Positions 7,275-56,182 of a stretch of 64,000 bases of DNA are shown here, piece by piece. A program made the position numbers and the translations under genes. Where the stretch lies: contig CAVVCZ010000007.1 of the NCBI GenBank assembly GCA_963746845.1, positions 60,488 to 124,487 on the forward strand, read 5' to 3'. Numbering within the stretch: the stretch's first letter is position 1; each line of letters begins with the position of its first letter. The stretch comes from an uncultured Chloroflexia bacterium. Lineage in GTDB: Bacteria; Chloroflexota; Limnocylindria; Limnocylindrales; CSP1-4. The notes beneath the pieces were generated by a model. The model ran no database searches and was not told the origin of the DNA. It was given only the letters and a program-made list of their open reading frames with translations.

Positions 7275-7388
7275 GCCGCGATCCGACAGGGTTGGGCGGG
7301 ATGATCGCGTCGAGCCGGTACCGCCGACCTGCAACGGCGGTGCCGGCCGGTGTGTTCCGACGGGTAGAGCGGCCCCTTCCCCTCCGCA

Positions 7389-7414
7389 GGTTGGATCAGT
7401 AGACTAGGCCAACC
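7389..7414. promoter_or_regulatory. Inverted repeat GGTTGG-N14-CCAACC in the argH/eamA divergent promoter region
   Basis: Perfect 6-bp arms at 7389-7394 and 7409-7414, about 20 bp upstream of the eamA ATG (7435) and its GAGGA RBS. Candidate operator. Confidence 0.3.
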
Positions 7415-7434
7415 GCATCGCGAACCGAGGAACC

Positions 7435-8400: not shown

Positions 8401-8409
8401 CCCGGCCGG

Positions 8410-9552
8410 TCATCCGACCCTGACGATCTCGACGGCCGGTGATTCCCCGCGATCCTCGACCGGGATCGCGCCGAGCGTGGCTCCGCTCGCCTCGGGGATC
8501 GTGTCGTTGATGAACAGCCCGGTCGCGGTCTCGACCGACGCCCGGACCTTCAGGAGGTCGGCGGTCCGGTGGGGCGGGGAGAACTCGATCGAGAGGTGCC
8601 AGTCGTCGGCGCCGTTCGGGGCCTCCTGGACGACCATCAGGTACGGCAGCTCGAACCCGAACAGGCCGTCGTAGCGGAGGACGAGGCGGCGCAGGATCCG
8701 GGCGAGCTCCACGCGCTCGCCGGGGTCCAGGTCGCCGAGCCGGCGGGCGCCGTGCCGGCGGGCCCGGACGTGGACCTCGAACGGCCAGCGCGGGGCGAAC
8801 GGGACGCCCACCGCGAACGCCCCCGAGGCCTCGATCGTCCGGGCTCCGGCGGCCGCGACGTCCGCCTCCGTCTCGCCGGCCGGGCCCGGCTCCGTGAGCG
8901 AACATCCGAGACAGCCGCCCGTCCGCGCCCGGTGACCCGCGAGCGCCTCCACCCGGGCGGCGATGAGCGACGGCACCCGGTCGAACGCGTAGATCTGGCC
9001 GTGCGGGTGCGACAGGGTCGCCCCGACGGCGGCGCCGCGGTTCTCGAAGATCAGGACGAACGCGTGACGCGGATCCGACCAGAGATCGCGCGAGCGGTCG
9101 GCCCAGATCGCGACGAGCCGGGCCAGCGCGTCAGGGTCGAGGGTCGCGAGGGAGCCCTCGTGGCGGTCCGTGTACAGGACGACCTCGCAGCGACCGAACG
9201 ACGGGGCGACGCCGGTCAGGTCCGGCGGCGGCGGCGGGTCCGGCTCGAGCGACGGGAACCGGTTCTCGAAGACCGCGGCGTCGTAGGCGAACGGGACCTC
9301 CGGGCCGCCCGGGCAGAGCGGACAGGCCGGTCCGGAGCCGCCCGGGGCCGCTGAGGCGTCGGGCCGGGTGTTGCGCGCCGGCGAGATCGCGACCCAGCCG
9401 TCCGTCAGCGCGTCGTGGCGCAGGTGGAGGCCGGTCGGGCCCTCCGCTGCGGGCGCGGCCGCCTGGCTCTCGTCGAGCGTGCCGCGAAGGGGGCCGTACA
9501 CGTAGAGGCGGCGTCCGTCCGCATGCCGCAGGAGGTGTCGCTCGACGGTCAC
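8410..9552 (-). CDS. galT: galactose-1-phosphate uridylyltransferase
   Basis: CPLCPG zinc motif and HPHGQIYA (HxHxQ) active-site motif of the HIT-family GalT. Its stop overlaps the galK start. Confidence 0.85.
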   Translation of the reverse strand: MTVERHLLRHADGRRLYVYGPLRGTLDESQAAAPAAEGPTGLHLRHDALTDGWVAISPARNTRPDASAAPGGSGPACPLCPGGPEVPFAYDAAVFENRFPSLEPDPPPPPDLTGVAPSFGRCEVVLYTDRHEGSLATLDPDALARLVAIWADRSRDLWSDPRHAFVLIFENRGAAVGATLSHPHGQIYAFDRVPSLIAARVEALAGHRARTGGCLGCSLTEPGPAGETEADVAAAGARTIEASGAFAVGVPFAPRWPFEVHVRARRHGARRLGDLDPGERVELARILRRLVLRYDGLFGFELPYLMVVQEAPNGADDWHLSIEFSPPHRTADLLKVRASVETATGLFINDTIPEASGATLGAIPVEDRGESPAVEIVRVG

Positions 9553-10763
9553 GTCCCCACCCCGGCCCCGACGGGATCGACGGCGCCCGCCCCACCGGCC
9601 GCGGCCACCACGAAGACTCGCGGGTGCAGCCCGGTCCGCCGCTCGTAGTCGCGCTCGACCGCCTCACGCAGGTCGGCGACCGCGGCGGGCCGCACCAGGT
9701 TGATCGTGCAGCCCCCGAACCCGGCACCGGTCAGCCGGGCCGCGACGACCCCGGGCGTCTCGGTCGCGATCTCGACGAGCGTGTCGAGCGGGATGGACGA
9801 CACCTCGTACAGTCGCCGGAGCGAGTCGTGGCTCTCGGCGAACAGGCGGCCGACCGTCTCCAGGTCGCCGGTGACGAGCGCCGCGCACGTCGCATCGACC
9901 CGCGCGATCTCCCGGACCACGTGCTCCGCCCGGCGCGCGGCCACCCGGTCCGCGGCGGTCAGCTCCGGCAGGACCGCCTCGAGCAGCCCCGGATCGACGT
10001 CCCGGAGCGATGTGATCGCCCGCCCCGTGCCCGCCAGCGCCGCGATCGCCGTCACGGCACGGGCGCACTCCGCCCGGCGATCGTTGTAGGCGGAGCCCGT
10101 GAGGGCACGTGGGGCCCCGGTGTGGCACACGACGAGGACGAGGTCCGCGGGAAGCGGCACCGGGCGCCAGTCCAGCGACCGGCAGTCGAGACGCAGCGCC
10201 GCGCCGGCCACGCCGAACGTGACGGCGAACTGGTCCATCAGCCCGCATTGGACCCCGACGTGCTCGTTCTCGCCGCGCTGCGCGATCCGGGCGAGGGTCA
10301 TCGGGTCCGTCGCCGGCGCCTCCCCGCCGGACAGCGCCCAGGCCGATGCCAGCTCGAGCGCCGCCGACGACGACAGGCCGGCCTGCGCCGGCAGGTCGCT
10401 GCCCACCACGCCAACGAAGCCTCCGACAGGCAGTCCCGCCGCGTCCATCGCCCAGGCGGTGCCCGCCACGTAGTCGATCCAGTGGCCGCGCGCCGGGCCG
10501 AGGTCGTCGAGGTCGATCTCGGCCGTGTCGCCCGCGTCGAGCGAGGTGAGGCGGACGGTCCGCGACACGGTCGGGAGGAGCGCGATCCGGACCTCTCGGT
10601 CGATCGCGGCGGGCAGGACGAGCCCGTCGTTGTAGTCGGTGTGCTCTCCGATCAGGTTGACCCGGCCGGGCGCCCGAACGACCCGGATCGCGTCGCGGCG
10701 CCGGGCCGCGTCGGGCTCGCCGGCGACCAGGGCCCCGATCAACGACCCCGCGAACGCGCTCAT
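9549..10763 (-). CDS. galK: galactokinase
   Basis: GHMP kinase. Galactokinase signature GRVNLIGEHTDYNDG near the N-terminus, GHMP ATP-binding motif (PVGGFVGVVGSDLPAQAGLSSSAA). Confidence 0.9.
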   Translation of the reverse strand: MSAFAGSLIGALVAGEPDAARRRDAIRVVRAPGRVNLIGEHTDYNDGLVLPAAIDREVRIALLPTVSRTVRLTSLDAGDTAEIDLDDLGPARGHWIDYVAGTAWAMDAAGLPVGGFVGVVGSDLPAQAGLSSSAALELASAWALSGGEAPATDPMTLARIAQRGENEHVGVQCGLMDQFAVTFGVAGAALRLDCRSLDWRPVPLPADLVLVVCHTGAPRALTGSAYNDRRAECARAVTAIAALAGTGRAITSLRDVDPGLLEAVLPELTAADRVAARRAEHVVREIARVDATCAALVTGDLETVGRLFAESHDSLRRLYEVSSIPLDTLVEIATETPGVVAARLTGAGFGGCTINLVRPAAVADLREAVERDYERRTGLHPRVFVVAAAGGAGAVDPVGAGVGT

Positions 10764-12150
10764 CCGCGAGCGCCCTGCCCGTCGGCCACCCCGTCCGCGA
10801 CGGAGGCGATGAAGGGCTCGATCGGAGACGCGGCGAGGAGCCGGCGGGTGGTGGTCAGCCCCCAGTCGTCGAGGTCGGCGAGGCGATCGGAGGAGCCGCG
10901 AAGCCCGCCGTAGCGCTCCACGTGCGCCGCCAGGGCTTCACGGTGCTCGACGGCGGGCCGGGCAACGATGCAGTCCGGGTCGTTGACCCAGAACCGGCCA
11001 TGCTGGAACGCCCGCCCGGCGCCTGTCACGACCGCGGACCGGCCCCCCGGCTTCGAGAGGTCGCCGTCGTCCGGCTCCCAGTGCGGACCGGTGTCGGGGC
11101 TGATCCGCATCGCGTCGACGAGCCCGACGCTCGGCAGGATCGGTGCCCCGCAGCCGAGCAGGTACGCGTCACCGATCGCGCCGCGGATCAGCTCCATTCC
11201 GCTCCGGTACGCCTGGATCTCGGTGAGGGACCGATCCTGCCGCCGCCCGGGCATCGCGCCCGCGTACAGGAAGTCGATCTTGAAGTAGTCGAACCCGAGA
11301 CCGCACAGCGTCTCGAACACGCCGGCGAGCCACGCCCGCGCATCCGCGTGGGTGGTGTCGAGAACCAGCAATCGCTGGTCCCAGTTGTGGCCGGCGTCGA
11401 CGGGCGCATCGGTCGCGAGGTCGCGGACCAGCCAGTCGGGATGGAGCCGGGCCGTCTCGGATCGCTCGCCGACGAGGAAGGGCGCCACCCAGATCCCCGC
11501 CCGCCGACCGGCCCCATGGATGCGCCGGACCAGGCCCTCGAGGGACACGAACCGCCCGGACAGCGCCAGCCAGTCGCCGATCTCCGCCTGGTAGCCGTCG
11601 TCCAGCTGGACGACGTCGATCGGCAGGTCCAGCCGGTCCATCGAGGCCAGGTTCTCGTCCATGTCGGCCTCGGTCACGTCCGTGAAGTAGTGGTACCAGG
11701 AGCACCAGACCGTCGGCGCGCGCCGGATCCCCTTCACTCCGGCCCGGACCGCGAACCAGCCGGCCCAGGCGGCCAGGGCGCGATCGATCCCGCCTTCGGC
11801 CGGATGCTGATCGTGGGTCACGTCGCCGTCGGCCCAGACCTGGATCACGTCCCCGTTCTGCTCCAATCGGATCGATGGCACGATCCGGTCCGCGCGCGCG
11901 GCATGGAAGACGTGGATCTGCTCGGAGGGCGTCGGCTGGACCGCGAGCAGGCCCTCGCCCTGGAACACGCCGGGCGGCACGGCGTCCCCCGGTCGGTAGC
12001 CCATGACCCGGCTCACGGCGTGCCTCGGTCGGGGTGGTTGATCCGTGACGGCCCAGGTCGCCGACGGGCTCCACGACTGCCAGCCATGCTCGAACACGCG
12101 CGACGACGCCGGATCCACGTGCAGCTCGGCGATCCGTTCGAAGGCACCCA
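10760..12150 (-). CDS. alpha-galactosidase (clan GH-D, GH36/GH27-like)
   Basis: Translation contains WCSWYHYF, LDDGYQ and DYFKIDFLYAG motifs typical of melibiase-type alpha-galactosidases. ATG at 12148-12150 inside a longer artefactual ORF. Start/stop overlap with galK. Confidence 0.65.
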
Positions 12151-17368: not shown

Positions 17369-18913
17369 TCAGCGGTCATCGAGCCGGACATAGGCATGCA
17401 GGCCGTGCATCCCGCCCTCGCGGCCGAACCCGGACTCCTTGTAGCCGCCGAACGGCGAGGTCGGATCGAACCGATTGAACGTGTTCGCCCAGACGACGCC
17501 GGCCTTCATCCGCTTGACCATCTGGAGAATCCGGCTGCCCTTGTCGGTCCAGATGCCCGCGGACAGCCCGTACGGCGTGTTGTTCGCCTTCTCTACGGCC
17601 TCCTCGGGTGTCCGGAACGTCAGGACGGACAGCACCGGTCCGAAGATCTCCTCCCGAGCGATCCGGTGGCTCTGGGCCACGTTCGTGAAGAGCGTTGGCC
17701 GGAAGAAGCAGCCGCGATCGGGCAGATCGCAGGCCGGCTGGTACATCTCCGCGCCCTCGGCCCGTCCGGCTGCGACCAGCTCCGTGATCTTCTCGAGCTG
17801 GGCCCGGGAGTTGATCGCGCCGACGTCCGTGTTCTTGTCGAGCGGGTCGCCGACCCGGATCGTCGCCAGGCGGTCCTTCAGCTTCTCGATCAGCGGCTCG
17901 ACGATCGACTCCTGGGCGAGCAGCCGCGACCCGGCACAGCAGACCTCGCCCTGGTTGAAGTAGATCCCGTTGACGATCCCCTCGACCGCCTGGTCGAGCG
18001 GGGCGTCGTCGAACACGATGTTCGCGGCCTTGCCGCCGAGCTCCAGGGTCAGCGCCTTGTCGGTGCCGGCGACCCCCTGGAAGATCTTCCGCCCGATCTC
18101 GGTCGATCCCGTGAAGGCGACCTTGTCGACGCCCGGGTGGGTGATCAGGGCCATCCCGATCTCGCCGGGGCCCGGGACGATGTTGACGACCCCCGGCGGG
18201 AGGTCGGCCTGGCGGCAGACGTCGGCGAAGAGCAGGGCGCTGAGCGGGGTCGTCGACGCCGGCTTCAGGACGACGGTGTTGCCGGCGGCGAGGGCCGGGG
18301 CGATCTTCCACGCGAGCATCAGGAGCGGGAAGTTCCACGGGATCACCTGGGCGGCGACGCCGAGCGGCCGGGCGACCCGTCCGGGGAACGCGTAGTCGAG
18401 CTTGTCCGCCCAGCCGGCGTAGTACCAGAAGTGGGCCGCGGCGAGCGGCACGTCGACGTCGCGCGACTCCTTGATCGGCTTGCCCGAGTCCATCGATTCG
18501 AGGACCGCGAACTCGCGCGACCGCTCCTGCAGGATCCGGGCGATCCGGAAGAGGTACTTCGCCCGCTCCTTGCCGGAGAGGGTCCCCCAGCGCCGGCGCT
18601 GGGCCGTCCGCGCCGCCCGGACGGCCGTGTCGACGTCCTTCGCCGCCGCCTTGGCGACGAGCGCGAGCGGCTCCTCGGTCGCGGGGTTGACGGTCGTGAA
18701 CGTCTCGCCGCCGGTCGCCTGGACCTCGCGGCCGTTGATGAACAGCCCATAGCGGTCCTTGATCGTGACGACGTCGCGCGACTCCGGCGCGGGCGCGTAC
18801 TCCCACGGGATCGCGGCACCGTCGCCGAGCCCCCAGCTCGACGGGTGCCCCCTCGACGCGGGTGACCGCGCCGTTCGTCGCCGCCGGATCGGCCGGGCGT
18901 CTTCGTGGCCATC
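17369..18913 (-). CDS. NAD(P)-dependent aldehyde dehydrogenase with apparent frame disruption(s) in the first ~35 codons
   Basis: Catalytic region intact (ELGGKAANIVF, EVCCAGSRL, EIFGPV, PFGGYKESGFGRE). The frame continues upstream of the track's first Met with clear ALDH N-terminal homology (KDRYGLFINGREV...TFTTVNPATEEPLA...DVDTAVRAARTA...RWGTLSGKERAKYLFRIARIL), but there is no in-frame ATG/GTG/TTG back to the stop at 18923-18925. A continuous N-terminus (MA.MATKTP / ADPAATNGAVTRVEGAPVELG / LGDGAAIPWEY...) is recovered only by removing one base from a CCC run and one from a GGGGG run near 18840-18900. Confidence 0.7.
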   Translation of the reverse strand, partial: DGHEDARPIRRRRTARSPASRGHPSSWGLGDGAAIPWEYAPAPESRDVVTIKDRYGLFINGREVQATGGETFTTVNPATEEPLALVAKAAAKDVDTAVRAARTAQRRRWGTLSGKERAKYLFRIARILQERSREFAVLESMDSGKPIKESRDVDVPLAAAHFWYYAGWADKLDYAFPGRVARPLGVAAQVIPWNFPLLMLAWKIAPALAAGNTVVLKPASTTPLSALLFADVCRQADLPPGVVNIVPGPGEIGMALITHPGVDKVAFTGSTEIGRKIFQGVAGTDKALTLELGGKAANIVFDDAPLDQAVEGIVNGIYFNQGEVCCAGSRLLAQESIVEPLIEKLKDRLATIRVGDPLDKNTDVGAINSRAQLEKITELVAAGRAEGAEMYQPACDLPDRGCFFRPTLFTNVAQSHRIAREEIFGPVLSVLTFRTPEEAVEKANNTPYGLSAGIWTDKGSRILQMVKRMKAGVVWANTFNRFDPTSPFGGYKESGFGREGGMHGLHAYVRLDDR

Positions 18914-18922
18914 GCGGCCATG

Positions 18923-42850: not shown

Positions 42851-43797
42851 CTGATCCAGCCGTGGGCCAGCTCCTCGAGCCGGTCCCGCCAGCCCGTCCC
42901 GGCCCGGTCCGCCGCGATGATCGCGCCCTCCCGGATGCCGGTGTCGACGACGCGACCGGACGGCACGCCGACCCGGTCCAGGATCGCCTCGATGATCGCG
43001 GCGCCTCCGGCGAGCAGCCGGATCCGCGCCTCGCGCAGGCCGTACGTGGCCGCGAGCAGCTCCGCCGGGCCGGACGCCACGATCTCCCGCGCGGTCTCGA
43101 GCGCCGCGCGGTCGAGGACGTCGTTCCGCTCCGGGTCGCGGGCGCGGCGCAGCAGCTTCAGCAGGTTCGTCGCGGTGCCCCCGACGAAGATCACCTCGGT
43201 CGGCGGCCGACTCGGCGTCCAGTCGAAGGCCTCCGCGGCGGCCACGTTCAGCGCCGTGAACTGCTCCAGCGTGGGCGGGTCGCGATCGACGACCCGACGG
43301 GAGAGCCGACCCGCCCCGAGCTGGATGCCGGCGGCGCGAGCGAGACGTCCCGGGCCGATCTCCACGAGTTCGCTCGAGCCGCCGCCGATGTCGACGACGA
43401 GGAGATCGCTCTCGACGGCCCGACCGGCCGTCAGTCCGACGAGCGTCAGGAGCGCCTCCTCCTCGTGCTCGAGGACGCTCAGGGGCGTCCCGGTGCGCGA
43501 CGAGACCTCGGCGACGATCCGGGTCGCGTCGGCCAGGCGGCGGAGCGGCTCGGTGCCCATGACGATCGGCTCGCCGACCCCGAGGTCGCGGGCGAGGTCG
43601 ACATAGGCGCCGACGGTCGAGGCGAGGGTCGCCCGTCCGGCGGGCCCGAGCGATCCGGAGCCGTCCACGGCGGCGCCGAGCCCGAGGAATGTCGATTCGT
43701 CGTCGAGGACGACCAGCCCCGCCCGCTCCGGCCGGGCGATCAGCAGGTGGACGGACGTGGAGCCCAGGTCGATGGCGGCACCGGGACGCCGGGACAC
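42847..43797 (-). CDS. ppx: exopolyphosphatase / guanosine pentaphosphate phosphohydrolase (Ppx/GppA family)
   Basis: ASKHA-fold motifs AAIDLGSTSVHLLIA and DIGGGSSELV. 316 aa. Confidence 0.85.
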   Translation of the reverse strand: MSRRPGAAIDLGSTSVHLLIARPERAGLVVLDDESTFLGLGAAVDGSGSLGPAGRATLASTVGAYVDLARDLGVGEPIVMGTEPLRRLADATRIVAEVSSRTGTPLSVLEHEEEALLTLVGLTAGRAVESDLLVVDIGGGSSELVEIGPGRLARAAGIQLGAGRLSRRVVDRDPPTLEQFTALNVAAAEAFDWTPSRPPTEVIFVGGTATNLLKLLRRARDPERNDVLDRAALETAREIVASGPAELLAATYGLREARIRLLAGGAAIIEAILDRVGVPSGRVVDTGIREGAIIAADRAGTGWRDRLEELAHGWIS

Positions 43798-43812
43798 GGG
43801 TGGGCTGCCCCC

Positions 43813-44262
43813 TCAGGGGGTGGTCCGGGGACCGAACGCGGCGGCGTGCGCGCTCAGGACGAGCTGCTCGTGCCGCCGGCCGAGCGTCGTCGGCCGGTCG
43901 CCGCCGGGGCCGGGGCCCGCTTCCCCATCGGGACCCTCTTTGCCGCCGGGGCGGCCTTCGATGCTCGCGGTCGCGCCGCCGGAGCGCGCCGGCCGGGCCT
44001 GCAGCTCGCGGATCGCGTCGAGCAGCGCGCTGAGCTCGGTGATCTCGTCCCGGACCTCCGCCAGCCGGGTCGCCCGCTTGTCGCGGTTCCGTTTCGTCGC
44101 CTTCTCGAGTCGCGATGCGCGCCAGGTCTCCTCCGATCGGGCGGCGCCGAGGGCGAACTCGAGCCACTCGACGTGACGGGCGAGCGCCGCTGCGGGCGTC
44201 ATCACGGGCGCCGGCGCGGCGGCTGCGGTCTCGGATGCCGGCGTCGCCGGTTGCTCGGTCAT
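43813..44262 (-). CDS. hypothetical protein (coiled-coil plus Gly/Pro-rich segment)
   Basis: 149-aa ORF MTEQPATPAS... immediately upstream of ppx on the same strand. ATG at 44260-44262. No family recognised. Confidence 0.35.
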   Translation of the reverse strand: MTEQPATPASETAAAAPAPVMTPAAALARHVEWLEFALGAARSEETWRASRLEKATKRNRDKRATRLAEVRDEITELSALLDAIRELQARPARSGGATASIEGRPGGKEGPDGEAGPGPGGDRPTTLGRRHEQLVLSAHAAAFGPRTTP

Positions 44263-44360
44263 CGTGCCTCCTCGTCGGGCCCCCTGCGCATTCTCGCCGA
44301 CCGGGCGCCGCGGAGTCTCGGGCGCCCGGGTTAACGCGAGGTTATCGGCACGGGACACCC

Positions 44361-45068
44361 CTACAGCGCCAGGAACACCCCCATGACGATGAGCCAGAGC
44401 GACCAGGCGATGTAGGCGATCGGCACGATCGTCCCGGCCAGCGGCCAGCCATCGCGCTCGTTCGGGCCGACGAACTCGAGCGTGCCGACGAGGAGCGCGA
44501 GCCCGATCGGGACGGCCAGCCAGCCGAGCCATGCCGGCAGCGGTGTCGTCGTGACGATCGAGGCGGCCACGGCCAGGGTCCACAGGCCGGTGAACAGGTA
44601 CCCGAGGTGCTCGCCGATCCCCACGCCGAGCAGGCGATGGAGCGTCGCGAAGATCGTCTCGACCGTCCGGCGCTCCGCCGCGGCGTCAGCGGGCGATCGA
44701 TCGGGCGCGTCCGCCGCAACGTACCGTCGCGCGAGCTCGGGGACCGCGAACGGCCAGCGCACCAGTCCGAGCGCCTGGACCAGGGCCGCGGCGGCGCCGA
44801 GCGTGATCGCGAGGGCCGTCCAGACCGGCGCGGCGCCGAGCGCCACCGCGAGCAGGACCGCGAGCGGCAGCATCGCGAGCGCGCTCACGAGCAGCGCCTC
44901 CCAGCGGAGGATCAGCCCCGACCCGCCGGCATGGAACCGGCGAAGGATCTCGTCCGGTGCGCGACGGAGGATGTCCGGGTAGTCGAACGCCCGGCCCAGC
45001 GAGAAGAACGCCAGGTTGAACGCGATCGGCACGACGATCAGCAGGACGGCGGTCACGGTCTCGACCAT
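44361..45068 (-). CDS. DUF4386-family membrane protein
   Basis: 235 aa starting MVETVTAVLLIVVPIAFNLAFFSLGRAFDYPDILRRAPDEILRRFHAGG, matching the DUF4386 N-terminus. 6 TM. Confidence 0.5.
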   Translation of the reverse strand: MVETVTAVLLIVVPIAFNLAFFSLGRAFDYPDILRRAPDEILRRFHAGGSGLILRWEALLVSALAMLPLAVLLAVALGAAPVWTALAITLGAAAALVQALGLVRWPFAVPELARRYVAADAPDRSPADAAAERRTVETIFATLHRLLGVGIGEHLGYLFTGLWTLAVAASIVTTTPLPAWLGWLAVPIGLALLVGTLEFVGPNERDGWPLAGTIVPIAYIAWSLWLIVMGVFLAL

Positions 45069-45280
45069 CGCGGGAGTGTATCGGCCGGCCTCGGCCCCGT
45101 GTTGTTGACCCGCTGCAAACATCGCGGAAATCCGCGCCCTCGACGCTCTCGGGGGACCTCGATTCCGATCCGGCGGTCGTGCTCGGAGCGACGGCCGGTC
45201 CCTCCTCCTGGCCGGTGTGCTGCTCGGGCACACCGGCCAGCCTCGTTTCCGGGTAAGCGGACGTCGCGGAACCCCCGACC

Positions 45281-45372
45281 TGTTAATCGATGCTTAACAC
45301 CGTACAAAGCGACGGTTGACCCACGCTCGGCACGGTTCAGCCGTTGTCACGAGGCCGAGTCACGCCGTGACC
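45281..45372 (+). promoter_or_regulatory. pst promoter region: palindrome TGTTAA-N7-TTAACA (45281-45299) followed by PHO-box-like direct repeats (GGTTGAC, GGTTCAG, TGTCACG, AGTCACG; 45314-45364)
   Basis: Seen in sequence. Repeats resemble actinobacterial PhoP PHO-box units (GTTCACC-like at roughly 11-nt spacing). Located 40-130 bp upstream of the pstS TTG/RBS (GGAGAGGAGG). Confidence 0.4.
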
Positions 45373-45412
45373 GAACACCGTCGGCTCCCCAGGCCGGCGG
45401 AGAGGAGGACAC

Positions 45413-46652
45413 TTGATCGCGAGATCCCGCGTCGGCGCCGCCCTGACCGTCGCCAGCCTGTTCGTCGTCGCCGCCTGCAGCGGCGGTACCCTCAGTCCAT
45501 CACCGTCCGCCGCAGCCCCGTCGACGGTAGCAAGTGCTCCCGCAGACACTGGCGCTCCCTCTGGAGGAGCTCCCTCCGCATCGGTGGCAGCGCCGTCGGC
45601 CCAGGCAATCTCCTACCGCTGCTCGAAGGGCGACGGCCAGCTGAACGGCGCCGGATCGACATTCATCTTCCCGCTCATGCTCGAAGTGGGGCGACGACTA
45701 CAACACCAAGTGCGGCGTCAAGACTCAACTACCAGTCGATCGGCTCCGGCGGTGGCGTCGAAGGGCTGGACGCAGAACACCGTCGACTTCGGTGCCTCCG
45801 ACGCCTACCTCCAGGACGAGCGAGATCGCGGCCGCGGCCAAGAACGGCGAGCCGGTCGAGATCCCGGTCACCTTCGGGGCGGTGGTGGTCGCCTACAACC
45901 TGAAGGGCCTGTCGGCGCCGCTCAAGATGACGCCGGACATCGTCGCGAACCTGTTCCTGGGCAAGATCGCGAAGTGGAACGACCCTCGATCGCCGCGGCG
46001 AACCCGGGCGTGAACGCTGCCGGACATGGATGTCAGCGTCGTCCACCGCTCGGACGGGTCGGGCACCACGAGCATCTTCACCAACGTACCTGACGAAGGT
46101 CGAGCCCGGACTGGGTCACGACCGTCGGGGCCGGCGACCCGAAGAAGTCGGCCGGGCAAGACGGTCGGAATGGCCGACGGGTCTCGGGCGCGAGCGGCAA
46201 TGAGGGCGTCACCCAGGGGATCACCCAGACCGAGGGCGGGCGTCGGGTACATCGAGCTCGCGTACGCTCTGAAGAACAAGATCCCGTTCGCGGATGTGGC
46301 GAACAAGTCCGGCGCGTTCGTCACGCCGTCGCTCGACTCGGTCGAAAGCGGCCGCCGACCTGCCCGAGCTACCCGGCCGACCTGCGGTTCGACCTGGTCG
46401 ACACTCGACTCCCCGCACGGGCTATCCGATCACCGGGCACGACCTGGCTGATCATCTACAAGGACCTGTCGAAGGTGCTCAAGACCCAGGATCGAGCGAC
46501 CTCGTTGGCCGACTTTCTCTGGTGGGCGATCCACGAAGGCCAGGACAGTGCCGCGCCACTCTTCTATGCGGCGATCCCGGCAGGCCTGCTTCCGCAGGAC
46601 GAGGCGGCCGTGAAGTCGCTCAACTGGGGCGGCCAGGCGCTGCTGCCATAGT
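45413..46652 (+). pseudogene. pstS: phosphate ABC transporter substrate-binding protein PstS, broken into at least 4 frames
   Basis: N-terminal signal plus lipobox (VVAACSGG) and LNGAGSTFIFPLM in the first frame. Recognisable PstS segments then appear in shifted frames (SIGSGGGVEGL..., EIPVTFGAVVVAYNLKGL...KWNDP, VVHRSDGSGTTSIFT..., C-terminus ...KSLNWGGQALLP). Apparent stop at 46650-46652. Confidence 0.7.
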
Positions 46653-46761
46653 CTTCGATCCTCCTGTCACGACGCCGGCCCCCGGCATCCCGCGACGCCC
46701 GGGGCGGCGTCATCATTCCGGGAACCTACCCACTACATCGGGACGTGAGACGCTGCCGCAG

Positions 46762-47729
46762 ATGACGACCGTCGGTCAGGGCTTCGAGCAACGGCGATTG
46801 ACCAAGCGTTCCGTCGTGACCGGGGACCTCGTGTTCCGCGTGTTCACCGCCGCGCTGACATTCGCGGTTGTGCTCTTGATCAGCTTGATGGTCTACAAGA
46901 GCGTCGTGACCACCGTCCCGGTCTTCGACAAGTTCGGCGTTGTCGGCTTCGTCACCGGGACGCGATGGTCCCCGTCATTCGGAATCTACGGGGCCTTGCC
47001 GTTCATCTACGGGACGGTCCTGACCAGCGCAATGGCGCTCCTGATCGCAGTTCCGATCGCGCTTGGGATTGCGCTCCTCGTCACGGAGATGCTACCGCGA
47101 CGGATCGCCGGGCCCGTGGCCGTCGCCGTTGACCTGCTGGCCGCCATCCCGTCGGTCGTCTGGGGCCTGTGGGGGCTGCTCGTGCTCGTCCCGTTCCTGA
47201 GACCAATCGAGACGGCGATCGCCGGAAGCATCGGCCAGCTCATCCCGTTCCTTGGACCGCCCACGCCGGGACCCAGCTACTTCGCCGCCGGCGTCATCGT
47301 CGCGTTCATGATCATCCCGATCGTCGCCGCCGTCACCCGGGAGGTCTTCGCGGCCACCCCGCGGCTCCAGCGGGAGGCAGCCCTCGCCCTGGGCGGGACT
47401 CGCTGGGACGTCATCCGCCACGTCGTCGTCCCGATCGGGCGAACCGGCATCCAGGCGGCGGTGATCCTCGGGCTCGGACGGGCGATCGGCGAGACCATCG
47501 CGGTCACGCTCGTGATCGGGAACTCAACGAAGATCGGACCTCGATCTTTTCGCCAGGATTCTCGCTGGCCTCGGTCATCGCCAACGAGTTCAACGAAGCG
47601 ACCGAGCCGCTCCATCCGGAGTCGCTCATCACGCTGGGGGTCGTTCTGCTCGCGATCGCGGTGATCGTGAACGGTGCAGGTGTCGCCGTGCGTAGGCGCT
47701 TCGAGCAAGGTTCTGGCCGTGCTGGCTGA
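46762..47729 (+). pseudogene. pstC: phosphate ABC transporter permease PstC with a frameshift near 47530
   Basis: PstC TM core in one frame up to ...TLVIGNSTKIGP. The conserved C-terminus (IFSPGFSLASVIANEFNEATEPLHPESLITLGVVLL...) continues in another frame to the stop at 47727-47729. Confidence 0.7.
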
Positions 47730-47757
47730 TCCGACGCTCGTGTTCCGGCCGACGGGC

Positions 47758-48620
47758 CGCAGTCGCCTGGCAAGAGCCCGGCTGGTCTAGGTTCTCGCCG
47801 TCATCGCGCTGGTCGCTGCCCTGATCCCTCTGGTTTCCATCTTGACATTCCTCATCAGCCAGGGCATTGGCGTCATCCGGCTCGAGTTCCTCACCGAGGA
47901 CCCGCCAGGGCGATCTGAGCCAGGTCGGCGGCGGGATCCGGAATGCGGTTGTCGGCTCGCTCATGATGACCGGGCTTGCGACGATCTTCGCAGTGCCAGC
48001 CGGGATCCTCATCGCGGTCTTCAACCGGGAGATTGGAGGACGGCCGGCCGTCGCCATCCGCTTCCTGATGGACGTGCTCGTGGCGCTGCCGTCGATCGTG
48101 GTCGGGATCTTCGTCTACGAACTCGTCGTCGTCGCCCAGGGCCACTTCTCGGGGTTTGCCGGCTCGGTCGCTCTCGCGATCATCATGCTTCCGATCATCG
48201 TCATCTCGACCGAGGAGATGCTGCGCCTCGTTCCCGGCCCGGTTTCCGAAGGCGTCCGCGCCCTTGGGCTGACACGCTGGCGTTCGTACCTCGTCGGTGA
48301 TCATTCCGACGGCGCTGTCGGGGATCTTCACGGGCATCCTGCTCGCGGTCTCGCGCGCCATCGGCGAGACGGCGCCGCTGATCTTCACGGCGCTCGGCAA
48401 CAACTTCTTCACCCTGGACTTCAGCGAGCCCATGCAGGCGTTGCCGCTGTTGATCTATCGGAATGCGCTCAATTCCGCATTCCCGCGGCGCGCGACCGTG
48501 CGATGGGCGCTGCCCTTGTCCTCGTGGTGATCGTGCTCATCTTCAATCTTGTTGGCCGGTGGCTGGTGAGCAGACGTCTCGCCGAGCGACCGGCGCCAGT
48601 GAGCGGAACTGAGGTGCAGA
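47758..48620 (+). pseudogene. pstA: phosphate ABC transporter permease PstA with at least 3 frame breaks (approximate bounds)
   Basis: PstA segments alternate between frames: ...FLISQGIGVIRLEFLTEDPPG / ...GIRNAVVGSLMMTGLATIFAVPAGILIAV...ISTEEMLRLVPGPVSEGVRALGLTRW / IIPTALSGIFTGILLAVSRAIGETAPLIFTALGNNFF... / ...AMGAALVLVVIVLIFNLVGRWLVSRRL. Confidence 0.6.
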
Positions 48621-49470
48621 TGATCGCCGAGCTTGAACCCGATCCCGCTGACGTGTCCGCCGCCGTCCCGCAGGCGGCCATCGAGGTGGCGCCCAGGGAT
48701 ACGGACAATGTCCTGACCCTCGAGCATCTCGATGCCTATTACGGCAGCCGAAAGGTCGTCCGTGACGTGACGCTCGGCGTTCGGACGAACGCGATCACGG
48801 CGATCATCGGCCCGTCAGGAAGCGGCAAGTCCACGATGCTTCGATGCATCGACCGGATGCACGAAGTCATTCCGGGAGCCAGCGCGACCGGCACGATCCA
48901 GTATCGCGGAATCGACTCTATGGAGATGGGATCGATCCTGCAGCTGTTCGCCGGACGATCGGCATGGTCTTCCAGCAGCCGAACCCGTTCCCGACAAGTC
49001 GATCTTCGACAATGTCGTGGCCGCTCGGTTCAACGGCCTGGTCAAGGGCAAGACAGCGCGACGAGCTCGTCGAGACGAAGCCTTCGTCAGGCCGCCCTCT
49101 GGGACGAGGTCAAGGACAAGCTCAAGCAGAGCGGGCTCTCCCTGTCGGGCGGACAGCAACAGCGTCTCTGCATCGCGCGCGCGATTGCACGGAGCCGGAG
49201 ATGCTCCTGATGGACGAGCCGTGCTCGGCCCTCGATCCGCGCGCCACGCTTCAGATCGAGCAGCTGATGACCGAGCTCAAGGCCCGCTACACGATCGTCA
49301 TCGTGACCCACAACATGCAGCAGGCTGCCCGTGCATCGGACCGGACGGCGTTCCTGACGATGGGCGAGGATCGAGCAGGCTACGTCGTGGAGGAGGGTCG
49401 GACGGCCGACATCTTCACGAACCCGAAGCACCAGCTCACCGAGGACTATGTGTCGGGCCGATTCGGATGA
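48609..49470 (+). pseudogene. pstB: phosphate ABC transporter ATP-binding protein PstB with at least 3 frame breaks
   Basis: Walker A IIGPSGSGKST, TIGMVFQQPNPFP, signature LSGGQQQRLCIARAIA, Walker B MLLMDEPCSALDP and the C-terminus ...TEDYVSGRFG are all present but spread over alternating frames. Start is probably the ATG at about 48609 (MIAELEP...). Confidence 0.65.
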
Positions 49471-49627
49471 GCGAACGAGAGGCTGAGGACTGACCCATGA
49501 CCGACGATCCGAACGCCCAACGCTCGTCCCATGCATCTCCCGTCATCGCGGCGGCGATGACGGTTGTGCGGAAGCGGCCGATTCATACAACGAAGCCCAT
49601 CCGCCGCGTCCGAGCCTCGACCTGGAC

Positions 49628-50257
49628 ATGCGCGAGATCAAGGACGACATCCTCCGGATGGGCTCCTATGTGGAGGAGGCGATTCGAGCCGCGATGGCCG
49701 CCCTCGTTGCGCACGACGCGGCGTCCGCGACGGCCGTCATCGTCGCCGACGCGAAGATCAATGAGATGCAACGGGAAGTCACGGGCCTGATCACCCGGAC
49801 GATCGCGATGCAGTCGCCCGTCGCGCGCGATCTCCGGTTCCTGCTCGCGCTCGACCACGTCAGCTACGAGCTCGAGCGGATGGGCGACCACGCCGCTTCT
49901 GTCGCGAAGCAGGTCCGCAAGCTCGCCCCCTACCCGCCCCTGAAGCGCTATGTCGACCTCCCGGCAATGGGCGACCTCGCCGCGACGCTCGTCGGCAACA
50001 TCCTCCTGGCGCTGGTCGACGTCGATGTCGATGCGGCACGGCGCGTCGCGGCGCGCGACGACGAGATCGACGACCTCTACCACAGGACCTTCGCCGAGGT
50101 CGTCGAGCTGATGCGGGCGGACCCGGACAACGTCGAACGCGGCACCCGGATCCTGTTCGCCTCGCACTACGTCGAGCGGATCGGCGACCGGGTCACGAAC
50201 ATCGCCGAGGACGTGGTCTTCCTCGCGAGCGGCGAGATCGAGGACCTCAATCCATGA
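49628..50257 (+). CDS. phoU: phosphate signalling complex protein PhoU (5' end uncertain)
   Basis: Two PhoU repeats (PVARDLRFLLALDHVSYELERMGDHAASVAK and HYVERIGDRVTNIAEDVVF). In-frame homology extends about 10 codons upstream of the first ATG (...EAHPPRPSLDLDMREIKDDILRMG) with no canonical start, so the true start may lie upstream or be affected by another indel. Confidence 0.75.
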   Translation: MREIKDDILRMGSYVEEAIRAAMAALVAHDAASATAVIVADAKINEMQREVTGLITRTIAMQSPVARDLRFLLALDHVSYELERMGDHAASVAKQVRKLAPYPPLKRYVDLPAMGDLAATLVGNILLALVDVDVDAARRVAARDDEIDDLYHRTFAEVVELMRADPDNVERGTRILFASHYVERIGDRVTNIAEDVVFLASGEIEDLNP

Positions 50258-51971: not shown

Positions 51972-53227
51972 TCAGCCGGCTCCCGTCGGGACGACGAGCG
52001 GCTCGTCGTCCTCCGCGTCGATCGGGAACGGCAGCGCGATCGGATCGGTCGCCAGCCGGCTCCGGCCGGCGGCATCGAACCGATCGAGGCCGAGATCGCC
52101 GACGTCGACGACGTCCGTCGATCCGGTCATAGCCAGGTCCGCGGCGACGCGCGCCACGCCCGGTCCCCACATCATCCCGTGACCGCCCGCCGAGGCGATC
52201 GTCACGCCCGAGATCCGCTCGCCGGCCGCCGACAGGCCCGGCCCGAGGATCGGCAGATGGTCGGGCGTGAAGTCGATCGTCGCGGCCCAGATCTTCCGGA
52301 GGCCGAGCCCGCGGGTCACCGGCACGAACCCCGCCAGGCGATCGCGCATCGCCTCGTACATCGCCCAGTCGATGGCGCGGGCCTCGCCGGGCCGATCGCT
52401 CGGGTCGCTCCAGCCGAACAGCAGCCCGCCCTCCTCGAGGCGCCAGTACAGGCCCGCCCCGATGTCGAACACCATCGGCTGGCGCTCGACGGCGAACGCC
52501 TCGTGCGGCTGCGAGGACCGCGACCGTGTGGCGGACGGCGCCCGCCGGGATCCGGATGCCCGCCAGCCGGCCGACGGCTCGCAGCCCGGGACCGCCGGTG
52601 AGCAGCACCCGCTCCGCCGCGATCGGTCCGTGGTCCGTCACGACCCCGACGACCCGTGACCCGCCACCGGGGAGCGGCTCCGTCCGGAGACCCGTGAACG
52701 CGGTGTGCTCGCGCAGCTCGACGTCGGCGCGGTCCATCGCGAGCGAGTAGGCGCGGACGTTGCGGGGCGGGTCGATGTGGCCGTCCGTCGCGAGGTAGCT
52801 GCCGCCGCGATGCCCGTCCGGGCTCAGGGTGGGGTTCAGGGCGACGGCCTCGGACGGCGAGACCCAGCGGACGTCGAGGCCGGCCGCTCCGCTGCATCGC
52901 GACGCGCTCGCGACCGGACCGCTCGTCCTCGTCGGTGACCGCGAGGATCAGGTAGCCGAGCTCGCGGAAGCCGCTGTCGGTGCCGAACGTCGCCGACTGA
53001 CGACGGTAGAAGTCGATCGACCAGCGGCCGAGGGCGACGGTTGTCGGCGTCCCGCCCTGGGCCCGGACGATCCCCGCCGCGCGGCTGCTCGCGCCCTGGC
53101 CCGGCGATCGCCGCGCTCGACGACGACGACCCGCCCGGCGCCGTCCATCGCGGCGAAGGTGCTCGCCCAGCCGCCGATCGTGCCCGCGCCGACGACGACG
53201 AGATCCGCGCGTTCCGTGCTGCTCACG
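51972..53227 (-). pseudogene. DAO-family FAD-dependent oxidoreductase (glycine/sarcosine-oxidase-like) with at least 2 frame breaks
   Basis: N-terminus VSSTERADLVVVGAGTIGGWASTFAAMDGAGRVVVVERGD in one frame, the middle part (...DVELREHTAFTGL...VVGVVTDHGPIAAERVLLTGGPG) in a second, and the C-terminus (...IASAGGHGMMWGPGVARVAADLAMTGS...) in a third. Confidence 0.6.
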
Positions 53228-53982
53228 TCGGGAGGATAGGCCGGGGCCGGGCGCCGCCGGTCGGCGCGTCGCGATGGTCGGGCCGGGTGAGCCGTCGAGG
53301 ACCGATCAGCCGTCGAGGGCCGCGGCCTCGCGCAGATCGCGACGACGCCGAGACGCTCGAAGCGCCGGTAGGTCGCCCGGCGGCGGACGGTCCAGGTCGC
53401 GACCTCCAGGCCCGCGTCGCGGGCGCGCCCGATCCCGGCCGGATCGAGCGCGTGCCACTCGATCGAGACGCCGCGGCACCCCAGGTCGACGGCACGGCCG
53501 ATCGTGTGCGGCGAGGCGTCACGAGAGTTGAGCCAGCGCGGCCAGGTCGGCGCCCAGTCCGCGATCCGCGCGAGCGTGGCGTCCCAGAAGGACGACACGA
53601 CGGCTCGCTCGAGACCCGGACCACGGCCGGCGACGATCGTCTCGAACGCGCCGCGTCCGGGGTCACCCTTCAGCTCGATGTCGAGGAACGCTCGGCGCGG
53701 GGCAGTCGCGAGGACCTGCTCCAGGCTCGGCACCCCGAGCCGCTCCAGCTCGTCGGCCGTCAGGTCGGCCACGCGGTCATGCAACCCATGGACCCGTAAC
53801 AGCGTGTCATCGTGGTAACAGACGGCCACGCCATCGCGGGACGCCCGCACGTCGAACTCCAGGCCGTCACAGCCCGGAACGTCCAGGGCGGCCAGGAACG
53901 CGGCGATCGTGTTCTCGGGGGCGCGTCGCCAATCGCCGCGATGGGCGAGCCGGAGCGCCCGCGGCGACAGGGGCTCGATCAT
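53228..53982 (-). CDS. glycerophosphodiester phosphodiesterase (GDPD family); 3' end unclear (no in-frame stop before the DAO-like N-terminus)
   Basis: ATG at 53980-53982 (overlaps the stop of the upstream EEP gene). GDPD motifs LAHRGDWRRAPENTIAAF and DGLEFDVRASRDGVAVCYHDDTL. After about 220 residues the frame becomes Arg-rich with rare codons and runs without a stop into the DAO-like GxGxxG segment. Confidence 0.65.
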
Positions 53983-54772: not shown

Positions 54773-56182
54773 TCAGCTGGCGCCGATCGGCGACGCCGCT
54801 CGCGACGACACGGGAAGGGCGAAGGTGAACGTCGAGCCTCGACCCTCCTCGGACTCGACCCAGATCCGGCCGCCGTGCTGCTGGATGACGTGGCGGGCGA
54901 TCGCCAGCCCGAGACCCGTCCCGCCGCCGCGCACGCGCACCCGATCGACCTTGTAGAAGCGCTCGAAGATCCGGTCCTGGTCGCTCGTCGGGATCCCGAC
55001 ACCATGGTCTTCGACGGAGAGCGTGATCTCGTCGCCGTCGTTGCGCACCGTGACGCGGACCTCGTCGGGCGTCCCGTCGCCCCGATCCGATCGAACCGTC
55101 ATGGGCTCGTCGTCTTCGAGGCCGCCCGGGCGGCCGAACTTCAGCGCGTTGTGGACCAGGTTGACCACGACCTGACCGAGACGCGCCTCGTCGCCGCGCA
55201 GCGCCGGCACGCGTGGCGGCACGTCGACGACCAGCCGCAGGCCCTGTCGATCCGCGAACACGCGGAGACGGTCGGCGGCCTCGATCGCGACCCGCCCGAG
55301 GTCGACCTCCTCCAGCAGGAGCGGCCCGCCGCCCTCGATCCGGGCGAGATCCAGCAGCTCGTTGACCATCTGGACGAGGTGCCCGGTCTCGACCTCGATC
55401 TTCCCGATCCGGTCGCGCATCTTCGGTGGGACGCCGTCACCTGCCGCCTCGGCCTCCCGGACGAGCGTCTCGGCGAGAAGGCTGACCGTGGACAGCGGCG
55501 TCCGCAGCTCGTGGGACAGGTTGTCGACGAACTCGGTGCGGATCTGCTGGAGCCGCCGGAGCTCCGATACGTCCTCGAGGACGACCCACACCCCGAGCGT
55601 CGGCGAGTGACGTGCACGGATCACGAGGATCGGTCCGTCCGGCCCCGGCAACCGGTACTCGCCGGACGATCCGCCGGTTCGCCCGGCGATGGCGATCAGA
55701 TCCTCGACCCGGGCGTCGACGAACGCCTCCAGCGCGGTCCTGCCTCGGAGCGAGCGGGGCGGGCGCCGCAGGAGCGCATGCGCTGCGGCATTCGCCAGAT
55801 CGATTCGGCCCGATTCATCGAAGCGGAGGATGCCGACGCCCATCAGGTCGGCCAGGTACGACGCATTGCGGACCTGCTGATCGAGCTCGAACTCCGACGC
55901 GGCCAGGCGATCGCGTAGACGGCGCGCGAGCGTCGGCAGATCGGCCTCCGCATCACCGTCGACGGGAGCCGGAACCAGAGAGCGTCCTGCGGCGACCGGC
56001 TCGCTGGCGTTGGAGACCGGGATGGCGCGTGTGGTCGTTCCACCGGCCCGGACCAGAGCGTCGCGTGCGGCCCTGATCTGGCGGCCCCGATCCAGTGCGA
56101 CCCCGACCGCGATCGCAAGGGCGATCCCGAGGAGGGCGACGAGGGCGACGGCGATCCCATCCATGCCGCCCGAGCATCGCAC
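54773..56182 (-). CDS. sensor histidine kinase with PAS domain (SenX3-like architecture); no adjacent response regulator
   Basis: N-terminal TM, PAS-like region, H-box FVDNLSHELRTPL, and a C-terminal HATPase_c domain (conserved Asn, NxxxNAxK, in VVNLVHNALKFG; G1/G2 box region in DHGVGIPTSDQDRIFERFYKV...GGTGLGLAIA). GTG start at 56180-56182; the inner ATG at 56162-56164 is an alternative. Confidence 0.8.
   Translation of the reverse strand: MRCSGGMDGIAVALVALLGIALAIAVGVALDRGRQIRAARDALVRAGGTTTRAIPVSNASEPVAAGRSLVPAPVDGDAEADLPTLARRLRDRLAASEFELDQQVRNASYLADLMGVGILRFDESGRIDLANAAAHALLRRPPRSLRGRTALEAFVDARVEDLIAIAGRTGGSSGEYRLPGPDGPILVIRARHSPTLGVWVVLEDVSELRRLQQIRTEFVDNLSHELRTPLSTVSLLAETLVREAEAAGDGVPPKMRDRIGKIEVETGHLVQMVNELLDLARIEGGGPLLLEEVDLGRVAIEAADRLRVFADRQGLRLVVDVPPRVPALRGDEARLGQVVVNLVHNALKFGRPGGLEDDEPMTVRSDRGDGTPDEVRVTVRNDGDEITLSVEDHGVGIPTSDQDRIFERFYKVDRVRVRGGGTGLGLAIARHVIQQHGGRIWVESEEGRGSTFTFALPVSSRAASPIGAS

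Follow-up and report, generated by a model that had tools for sequence, protein, structure and literature searches.

Single-base breaks in the pstSCAB-phoU operon of an uncultured soil Limnocylindria most likely stem from consensus errors of a long-read assembly rather than from decay of the genes

Can a soil bacterium lose its phosphate importer while keeping the regulatory partner PhoU? The question is raised by a 64-kb stretch of DNA (hereafter the window), in which the coding sequences of PstS, PstC, PstA and PstB are fragmented across the three frames of the plus strand between positions 45413 and 49470. The original prediction had read this arrangement, provided that the breaks are real and pending verification against reads, as a pstSCAB system in decay next to a retained phoU. 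The organism is an uncultured soil Limnocylindria (Chloroflexota), and the operon product is a phosphate ABC importer together with the PhoU signalling protein.

Gene content of the operon

The genes lie on one strand in the order pstS-pstC-pstA-pstB-phoU, which is the same in L081, the closest intact relative, and in L059, L037, L040 and L021. The operon comprises the following features:

45413..46651, plus strand: pstS, lipoprotein phosphate-binding protein (frameshift-aware alignment to L059 and L081)
46671..46711, plus strand: pstS-pstC intercistronic stem-loop, GACGCCgGCCCC...GGGGCGGCGTC (folding and comparison with L081)
46764..47729, plus strand: pstC, permease (corrected protein against L081 and TIGR02138)
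47719..48602, plus strand: pstA, permease (GTG start; overlaps the 3' end of pstC)
48620..49470, plus strand: pstB, ATPase (corrected protein against TIGR00972)
49497..50257, plus strand: phoU (alignment to relatives and TIGR02135)

After frame correction, all five products score above the NCBIfam equivalog cut-offs: PstS with 335.6 bits (TIGR00975, cut-off 205; 90.6% identical to L081 PstS), PstC with 280.3 bits (TIGR02138, cut-off 196.45; 96.0% identical), PstA with 246.6 bits (TIGR00974, cut-off 193.45; 95.1% identical), PstB with 354.9 bits (TIGR00972, cut-off 343.2) and the 253-aa PhoU with 186.9 bits (TIGR02135, cut-off 130.25). In gene order and in these matches the operon resembles pstSCAB-phoU of E. 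coli; unlike the E. coli-type system, the genes as written each carry one-base indels, and none of the five has an uninterrupted frame in the sequence as given. The motifs by which the four pst genes had originally been recognized are all readable, namely the PstS lipobox VAAC (Cys codon at 45476-45478; a lipoprotein PstS as in Gram-positive bacteria), the permease cores of PstC and PstA, and, in PstB, Walker A (GPSGSGKST), the LSGGQQQR signature and Walker B (LLMDEP). Likewise, the proposed ribosome-binding site was confirmed: the Shine-Dalgarno-like GGAGAGGAGGA at 45399..45409 (plus strand) stands 3 nt 5' of the pstS TTG start at 45413, and both elements are identical in L081.

The operon holds a hairpin between pstS and pstC and is adjoined by ppk1, ppx and a CYTH-CHAD gene. 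These three neighbours align to L081 over their full length with zero frameshifts, as had been predicted, but the same claim of intactness does not extend to phoU. In relatives, PhoU has 243-256 aa (252 in L081), starts with MTD about 20 nt after pstB and, in the lineage of the window, carries a poorly conserved N-terminal extension of ~40 residues. The window has an ATG at the matching position (49497, MTDDPNAQ...), and a -1 shift near 49560-49572 cuts this start off from the ORF at 49628-50257, the part of phoU that had been taken as the intact gene. The conserved residues HPPRPSLDLD stand in frame upstream of this ORF without a start codon.

Searches for further copies returned no second pstS, pstC or pstA within the 64-kb window, where the other matches to pst queries were unrelated ABC ATPases (27-29% identity). 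A search for PstS of the same species gave nothing above 90% identity among 5.8 billion proteins, and no Rfam family matched the region. Exact-protein queries with the PhoU ORF and both LMW phosphatases, meant to locate a further copy of the strain, matched no record.

Distribution of the breaks and selective constraint

Shifts were counted with a frameshift-aware dynamic programme against L081 and L059. The HSPs of tblastn are unfit for this count, because the frame is regained after three +1 shifts in a row; pstS was returned as a single HSP of 54% identity, and PstC and PstA match each other. Across pstSCAB-phoU we found ~29 one-base indels, including one in the hairpin, plus one nonsense codon. 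The bulk falls within pstS, where 17 one-base shifts (sixteen +1, one -1) occupy 756 nt (45680-46435) without an in-frame stop. Four shifts were mapped in pstA, at 47908 (+1), 48293 (+1), 48486 (-1) and ~48580 (+1), and five in pstB, at ~48911-48917 (-1), 48997 (-1), ~49059 (+1), 49075 (+1) and 49190 (-1). Removal of the last insertion in pstA leads to its true stop, TGA at 48600-48602. The original estimate of several frame corrections per pst gene thus holds for these three genes but not for pstC, which has a single -1 shift near 47539-47542. The nonsense codon is a TAG at 47788-47790 in pstA, where L081 has CAG. Every indel in the operon is 1 nt long, and the ~28 shifts in the genes lie in non-repetitive, non-slippery contexts. 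The non-coding hairpin is hit as well: it forms a perfect 11-bp stem in L081 (-32.3 kcal/mol, z = -3.45) and has one extra G in its 5' arm in the window (-30 kcal/mol with a bulge).

Breaks also occur beyond pst, with three in a DAO gene, one in a GDPD gene, two each in a histidine kinase and an aldehyde dehydrogenase, and ~1 in a Dyp peroxidase. Eight genes between 35.0 and 43.7 kb are clean, as are four at 50.2-51.93 kb. Two further candidates were discarded: a break at ~13.1 kb, suggested by a codon-usage Viterbi map, is a normal gene boundary (the EamA and ABC genes are intact compared with L082), and a 296-aa aldehyde dehydrogenase-like ORF is a natural short gene that is present in a JGI contig too.

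Next, we compared the corrected genes with L081, to which their proteins are 85-96% identical. For PstS, dN/dS was 0.146 over the whole gene and 0.112 within the densely broken stretch; PstC gave 0.076, PstA 0.062 and PstB 0.156, and intact neighbours showed 0.07-0.42. Second codon positions were 98.4% identical in the dense pstS stretch and 96-99% identical over pstS, pstC and pstA. Measured by the two features used here to recognize pseudogenes, the genes do not qualify: constraint is not relaxed, with dN/dS the same as or below that of the intact neighbours, and in place of a mixed spectrum of stops, substitutions and variously sized deletions there are only 1-nt indels, most of them +1, with one nonsense codon. 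The GC content of the pst genes is low (0.64-0.67), and the same values in L081 indicate that it is native; an explanation as foreign DNA or as a by-product of errors was rejected on this ground.

Origin of the breaks

The same pattern is found in L014 (CAVPYV010000001.1) and L035 (CAWEAL010000003.1), independent Nanopore MAGs from the Microflora Danica (MFD) project that represent other species. Their pstSCAB genes contain 12 and 16 shifts, respectively, most of them +1. The flanks are almost clean, with four shifts in the CYTH-CHAD gene of L014 and one in the HisKA gene of L035. Among related loci, pstB is split in 7/34 MFD (Nanopore) loci and in 0/44 others (Fisher p = 0.002), and one-base fragmentation within the clade was seen only in long-read MAGs. 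The MFD MAGs were built from Nanopore reads alone, using Flye for assembly and a single round of Medaka for polishing (PMC12313526). The intact reference L081 also has Flye-style contig naming, and long-read assembly alone is therefore not sufficient for the pattern. From these relatives we assume that the window, too, probably derives from a long-read (Nanopore-type) metagenome assembly.

On the basis of these comparisons we consider it most likely, at a probability of roughly 0.85, that the operon is a normal pstSCAB-phoU and that the ~29 indels and the nonsense codon are long-read consensus errors and not mutations of the organism. The grounds for preferring an artefact over decay are the 1-nt size of the indels, the constraint that is kept, the hits in unrelated genes and in the non-coding hairpin, and the recurrence in Nanopore MAGs; we regard this as a strong inference, not as proof. 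The closest parallels are frameshift-fragmented Nanopore-only genomes and MAGs, in which one-base indels split otherwise conserved genes (PMC9262707), and collapsed-strain consensus contigs from metaFlye (PMC8302730). Classically, Nanopore errors affect the length of homopolymers and are scattered along the genome, whereas those in the window are clustered, mostly insertions, non-homopolymeric and situated beside synonymous sites.

This last property suggests how such errors may have arisen. At 17/22 insertions in the window, and at 34/43 over the three assemblies, either of two differing adjacent bases can be removed to yield the same peptide. In simulations, 46% of random insertions lie beside a synonymous site (p = 0.003 for the window, 8e-6 for the three assemblies), and unambiguous homopolymer extensions account for 0 insertions versus 27% expected. 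Reads of closely related co-occurring populations, or of paralogous copies, would have been piled onto one contig, and wherever these differed, mostly at synonymous positions, the consensus would have written both alleles in succession, giving +1 insertions such as GTC/GTG to GTCG, GGG/GGC to GGGC or ATC/CTC to ACTC; less often, it would have lost a base. The CAG-to-TAG change at 47788 is a substitution and lies outside what such double calls explain. The idea that errors track nucleotide conservation was set aside: local nucleotide identity to L081 is 0.872 at shifts versus 0.858, which is weak support, the conserved region at 35-38 kb is clean, and pstC, the most conserved gene, has one shift.

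A simpler artefact would be very low depth at 43.7-56 kb, with one or a few bridging reads whose raw random errors outlived polishing. The confinement of errors to a stretch of about read length between clean flanks fits this idea, and a near-finished Nanopore consensus needs ~40x coverage (PMC9262707). Nevertheless, we consider it rather unlikely, as raw errors would bring many substitutions and deletions, whereas the pstS cluster is nearly purely insertional without an excess of non-synonymous changes. Random insertions would also fall beside synonymous sites in 46% of cases, not in the observed 77-79%, and would extend homopolymers in 27%, not in none; moreover, low depth leaves unexplained why pst is a hotspot in three independent assemblies.

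True pseudogenization, with phosphate entering via another system, appears very improbable. It takes the sequence as given, with its breaks and one nonsense codon, at face value, agrees with the lack of a second pst copy in the window, and would make the pst-centred breaks in three lineages, L014 and L035 included, a case of parallel loss, in which high-affinity uptake was given up repeatedly where soils are rich in phosphate. In neutral decay of bacterial pseudogenes, substitutions far outnumber indels, and the process is deletion-biased. Here, by contrast, sixteen +1 shifts stand in 756 nt without excess substitutions (second positions 98.4% identical, dN/dS 0.11), and insertions are enriched beside synonymous sites, a preference for which mutation has no reason. 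The prediction of a decaying pstSCAB with phoU kept is further opposed by the hits in phoU itself and in unrelated genes, by the recurrence in MAGs of other species and by the restriction of split pstB to Nanopore-derived loci, with 0/44 among the non-MFD loci. To the related possibility that the breaks are real and that the organisms of the window, of L014, of L035 and others inactivated pstSCAB independently, through an unusual mutational process that adds single bases beside synonymous sites, we give similarly little credence. In a weaker variant of this possibility, pst would be a hotspot of population-level diversity, or of exchange between co-occurring lineages, strong enough to break the long-read consensus specifically there. 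Finally, the genes might stay functional through programmed or tolerated recoding, either by ribosomal frameshifting or by phase variation at simple repeats. This reading has in its favour only that the peptide sequence is conserved on both sides of the breaks, and it is effectively refuted by ~28 shifts in four genes in non-repetitive, non-slippery contexts, by the absence of such shifts from the 44 non-MFD loci and from L081, and by the lack of an RNA family matching the region.

Candidate Pho box and meaning of the locus

In addition, we analyzed the region upstream of pstS, for which a PHO-box-like promoter had been predicted from a palindrome and neighbouring repeats. Two elements are relevant here:

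45282..45321, plus strand: Pho-box-like array (alignment of 18 pstS upstream regions; 44 relatives)
44330..44346, no strand assigned: second TTAAC pair GTTAACgcgagGTTATC, 5' of a divergent minus-strand hypothetical gene (hyp182 homologue)

The array consists of units in an 11-bp register, GTTAAT (45282-45287), TTAACA (45294-45299), a degenerate CAAAGC and GTTGAC (45315-45320), of which the last doubles as a -35-like TTGAC. In the alignment of 18 pstS upstream regions, the TTAAC and GTT.A columns are invariant, and each unit has its TT in register, in columns 21-22, 32-33 and 54-55, the gap being filled by a degenerate unit; what is conserved is thus an array of direct repeats, GTTAAC-N5-TTAAC-N5-nAAAn-N5-GTTGAC. 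When conservation was checked in orthologous pst promoters, TTAAC was found 60-180 nt upstream of pstS in 40/44 related loci, versus 0.3% of background 120-nt windows, and two copies in the 11-bp register (TTAAY-N6-TTAAC) in 17/44 relatives. Within the 64 kb, TTAAC/GTTAA occurs only at the array and at 44330; at the place matching the latter, L081 has a perfect GTTAAC-N5-GTTAAC.

The predicted promoter repeats are therefore conserved, but as 11-bp direct repeats and not as the palindrome. TGTTAA (45281-45286) and TTAACA (45294-45299), separated by 7 nt, are palindromic in the window and L081 only, because the first unit there is GTTAAT, which differs from the conserved array. The ACGGTTGACCC/ACGGTTCAGCC and GTCACG copies are also present in the window, and the downstream GTTCAG/GTCACG repeats are conserved in L081 only. 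No match to a sigma-70-type promoter and no -10-like element were found in the region. In many relatives, L059 among them, the pstS upstream region directly follows a gene for an OmpR-family regulator; within the window, no cognate regulator was identified. The PhoP site of Bacillus subtilis consists of TT(A/T/C)ACA direct repeats spaced ~11 bp apart. The array resembles such Pho boxes of the OmpR/PhoB family in its (G)TTAAC(A) hexamer direct repeats with an 11-bp period and up to four units, in the overlap of its last unit with a -35-like TTGAC and in its lineage-wide retention upstream of pstS. Judged by this sequence comparison, the TTAAC repeats are a genuinely conserved, lineage-wide candidate Pho box for Limnocylindria.

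Almost certainly, the organism has an ordinary, constrained pstSCAB-phoU operon beside ppk1, ppx and CYTH-CHAD; consequently, there is no phoU-without-pst genotype to explain. The biological import of the breaks is small, and their main value is a caution on long-read MAGs. Annotation of such MAGs from this clade would call pstSCAB pseudogenes in a notable fraction (pstB is split in 7/34 Nanopore loci), and these false pseudogenes would skew inferences on phosphate metabolism in soil Chloroflexota. Since the errors are not of the homopolymer type, homopolymer-aware filters would miss them. The candidate Pho box, with TTAAC repeated at an 11-bp period, may serve as a basis for predicting Pho-regulon genes in the uncultured class Limnocylindria.

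Layout of the pstSCAB-phoU locus

The window has about 72% G+C, and the pstSCAB-phoU operon in it is of the standard type: PstS is a lipoprotein, a hairpin lies between pstS and pstC, and polyphosphate genes adjoin. All pst motifs named in the original prediction were found (lipobox, Walker A and B, signature), as were the RBS ahead of the TTG start, the GTCACG copies and the TGTTAA/TTAACA pair. The prediction that ppk1, CYTH-CHAD and ppx are intact holds as well. Every relative returned by a PhoU-based search is a Chloroflexota MAG from the Limnocylindria/Limnocylindrales group. The Microflora Danica project (MFD) contributed many of these; its MAGs are Nanopore-only and were obtained by Flye assembly with one Medaka polishing round (PMC12313526). 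The nearest relative with an intact operon, L081 (ENA ERZ25039520 contig_160177), was located via a PstS 90% identical to the frame-corrected PstS of the window, and is syntenic with 35037-56849 at ~85% nucleotide identity. Both share the order ABC exporter genes, ppk1, CYTH-CHAD, ppx, hyp182 (a 182-aa hypothetical protein of L081, encoded divergently from pstS), pstSCAB and phoU, followed by two LMW phosphatases, a histidine phosphatase, DAO, GDPD, an endonuclease/phosphatase-family gene and a histidine kinase. A DUF4386 membrane-protein gene (44361-45233, minus strand) between the hypothetical gene and pstS is missing in the otherwise syntenic L081, an insertion/deletion difference of ~0.8 kb.

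The pst-phoU genes have 64-67% G+C versus 71-75% in the flanks, both in the window (45413-50257) and in L081 (10001-14829). Compared with L081, pstS, pstC and pstA are within the four most nucleotide-conserved of 22 genes (90-93%; YbjQ 89.8%), and their dS is low (0.24-0.36, below most neighbours at 0.29-0.82). The G+C and the low dS could stem from codon usage, or from lineages having exchanged the operon.

One-base shifts within and beyond pst

Shifts in the pst genes and phoU were counted by frameshift-aware protein-to-DNA alignment against L081 and a second reference locus, L059.

Features of the window and their one-base shifts (coordinates, strand, feature)
17372-18921, minus: aldehyde dehydrogenase; two +1 shifts near the 5' end (18897, 18845) versus L082, a JGI contig
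~19250, minus: Dyp-type peroxidase next to the aldehyde dehydrogenase; C-terminal domain match lost there
43715-44262, minus: hyp182 homologue, 64% identity; four putative shifts, possibly alignment noise in a low-complexity protein
45413-49470, plus: PstS, PstC, PstA and PstB coding fragments, in all three frames
pstS: 17 shifts, all within 45680-46435 (16 +1, one -1)
46671-46711: GC-rich pstS-pstC stem-loop, conserved (L081 ~11247-11286); one extra G in the 5' arm
pstC: one shift, -1 near 47540
pstA: four shifts (47908 +1, 48293 +1, 48486 -1, ~48580 +1)
pstB: five shifts
49628-50257, plus: PhoU ORF, 3' of pstB
51975-53226, minus: DAO-family oxidoreductase; three shifts versus L081, near 53109, 52888 and 52512
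53309-53967, minus: GDPD phosphodiesterase; one shift versus L081, near 53331
54779-56164, minus: PAS/HisKA histidine kinase; two shifts versus L081, 56047 and 55968

The expectation that every pst gene needs several frame corrections holds for pstS, pstA and pstB; for pstC, one suffices. A TAG at 47788 in pstA corresponds to CAG in L081, and pstA seems to run into pstB because its last insertion masks the stop (TGA, 48600-48602). Contrary to the original prediction, phoU is not intact: a -1 shift near 49560-49572 parts the ATG at 49497 from the ORF at 49628, upstream of which conserved residues continue without a start codon. This ATG is the counterpart of the PhoU start in the relatives, whose proteins (243-256 aa; 252 in L081) begin with MTD shortly 3' of pstB.

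The errors are not confined to pst. Between 35.0 and 43.7 kb, eight genes are free of shifts, as are four between 50.2 and 51.9 kb. We take the pstS-pstC stem-loop, which in L081 pairs perfectly over 11 bp (-32 kcal/mol), to be a probable intercistronic mRNA element; its extra G in the window means that +1 errors reach non-coding DNA, too. The aldehyde dehydrogenase is very conserved, and many soil metagenome proteins, 510-522 aa long, match it at 92-97% identity; together with the Dyp peroxidase, it forms a second, small break cluster.

Origin of the shifts

We regard the breaks in the window as consensus artefacts, with a probability of about 0.85. Every indel in pst of the window is exactly 1 nt. 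The insertions are no homopolymer slips; most of them read as one codon position written twice in a row, with a different base each time. In five cases, relatives have GTG or GTC where the window has GTCG; further forms are GGG versus GGGC, CTG versus CTGC, ATC/CTC versus ACTC, CTC/GTC versus CGTC and AAC/ACG versus AACG. The related loci L035 and L014 show the same forms (TAC versus TATc, GGG versus GGCg, GAC versus GATc, GTG versus GTCg, TCG versus TCCg). Deleting either of two different adjacent bases restored the same peptide for 17/22 insertions in the window (binomial p = 0.003) and 34/43 across three assemblies (p = 8e-6), compared with 46% for simulated random insertions in the same genes. 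Unambiguous homopolymer extensions amounted to 0, versus 27% expected.

This pattern fits a consensus of mixed, closely related sequences. metaFlye collapses related strains to a consensus (PMC8302730), and indels in Nanopore consensus are a known source of fragmented genes (PMC9262707). Co-occurring populations or assembler-collapsed paralogues would be merged into one consensus, in which, we infer, both alleles of a polymorphic site would be emitted. If the breaks are artefacts, we lean towards this double-call mechanism. Simple low read depth is an unlikely cause: with it, substitutions and deletions should be frequent and synonymous sites should not be favoured, and it fits less well than a mixed consensus.

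The frame-corrected proteins match those of L081 at 90.6% (PstS), 96.0% (PstC), 95.1% (PstA), 85.0% (PstB) and 81.3% (PhoU) identity, with well-aligned intact neighbours at 77-94%, and 5/5 pass the NCBIfam equivalog cut-offs. The dN/dS values (0.146, 0.076, 0.062, 0.156 and 0.173, respectively) compare with 0.07-0.42 for neighbour genes. Under neutrality, sixteen indels should bring a heavy substitution load at all codon positions, but none is seen in the densest pstS stretch (248 codons, 16 indels), with a dN/dS of 0.112 and 98.4% identity at second codon positions. Local identity to L081 and error positions correlate weakly.

The same pattern recurs elsewhere: pstB is split in 7/34 MFD Nanopore loci versus 0/44 other loci (Fisher p = 0.002). 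L014 (MFD04944.bin.2.33) and L035 (MFD01299.bin.2.25), Nanopore MAGs of different Limnocylindria species from different samples, carry 12 and 16 mostly +1 shifts in pstSCAB (5800-9850 and 5850-9900). Their flanking genes are nearly clean, the exceptions being CYTH-CHAD in L014 with four shifts and HisKA in L035 with one. Their pst insertions adjoin wobble positions. A split pstB also occurs in L026, L069, L072, L079 and L080, and a split phoU in L052. Real pseudogenisation, originally proposed as decay of pst with phoU kept, is highly improbable given the 1-nt spectrum with its 16:1 ratio of insertions to deletions in pstS, the intact constraint, the shifts in unrelated genes (DAO, GDPD, histidine kinase, aldehyde dehydrogenase), the restriction of split pstB to Nanopore loci and the recurrence in other species.

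A conserved array upstream of pstS

The proposed PHO-box-like promoter was borne out as a conserved array upstream of pstS (45282-45321), but its palindrome and GTTCAG/GTCACG repeats are not lineage-wide. An alignment of 18 relatives gives the consensus GCGTTAACC-N-CCTTAACA-N-GCAAA-N-CCGTTGAC, with invariant TTAAC and GTT.A and a unit spacing of 11 and 22 nt. Of 44 relatives, 40 carry TTAAC at 60-180 nt ahead of pstS, versus 0.3% of background 120-nt windows, and 17 carry a pair of copies in 11-bp register. The palindrome TGTTAA-N7-TTAACA is particular to the window and L081, whose first unit, GTTAAT, gives rise to it; the downstream repeats are conserved in L081 only. Neither a sigma-70-type -10 element nor an Rfam element was found in the region.

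In many relatives, an OmpR-family response regulator gene ends directly before the array. Based on the conserved 11-bp-spaced units and this adjacent gene, the array is best read as putative direct repeats for a winged-helix regulator, similar to the TTAACA-like repeats of the PhoP site in B. subtilis. The preceding gene ends in ...RGVGYRLD in L043, L047, L063, L046, L028, L045, L062, L073, L025 and L059; in L059, it scores as an OmpR/PhoB-family response regulator, though below the equivalog cut-offs. In the window and L081, this gene is absent from the position before the array.

Within the 64-kb window, TTAAC/GTTAA occurs only in the pstS array and at 44330-44346 (GTTAACgcgagGTTATC). This second pair, in 11-bp register, precedes by ~70-85 nt the hypothetical gene that runs on the minus strand, divergent from pstS, and L081 has a perfect GTTAAC-N5-GTTAAC at the matching place (9609-9625). 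The pair makes the divergent gene another candidate for the same regulon. Altogether, this analysis has two by-products: a candidate Pho box for Limnocylindria, and a warning that in this clade a non-homopolymer class of errors in long-read MAGs concentrates in the pst genes.
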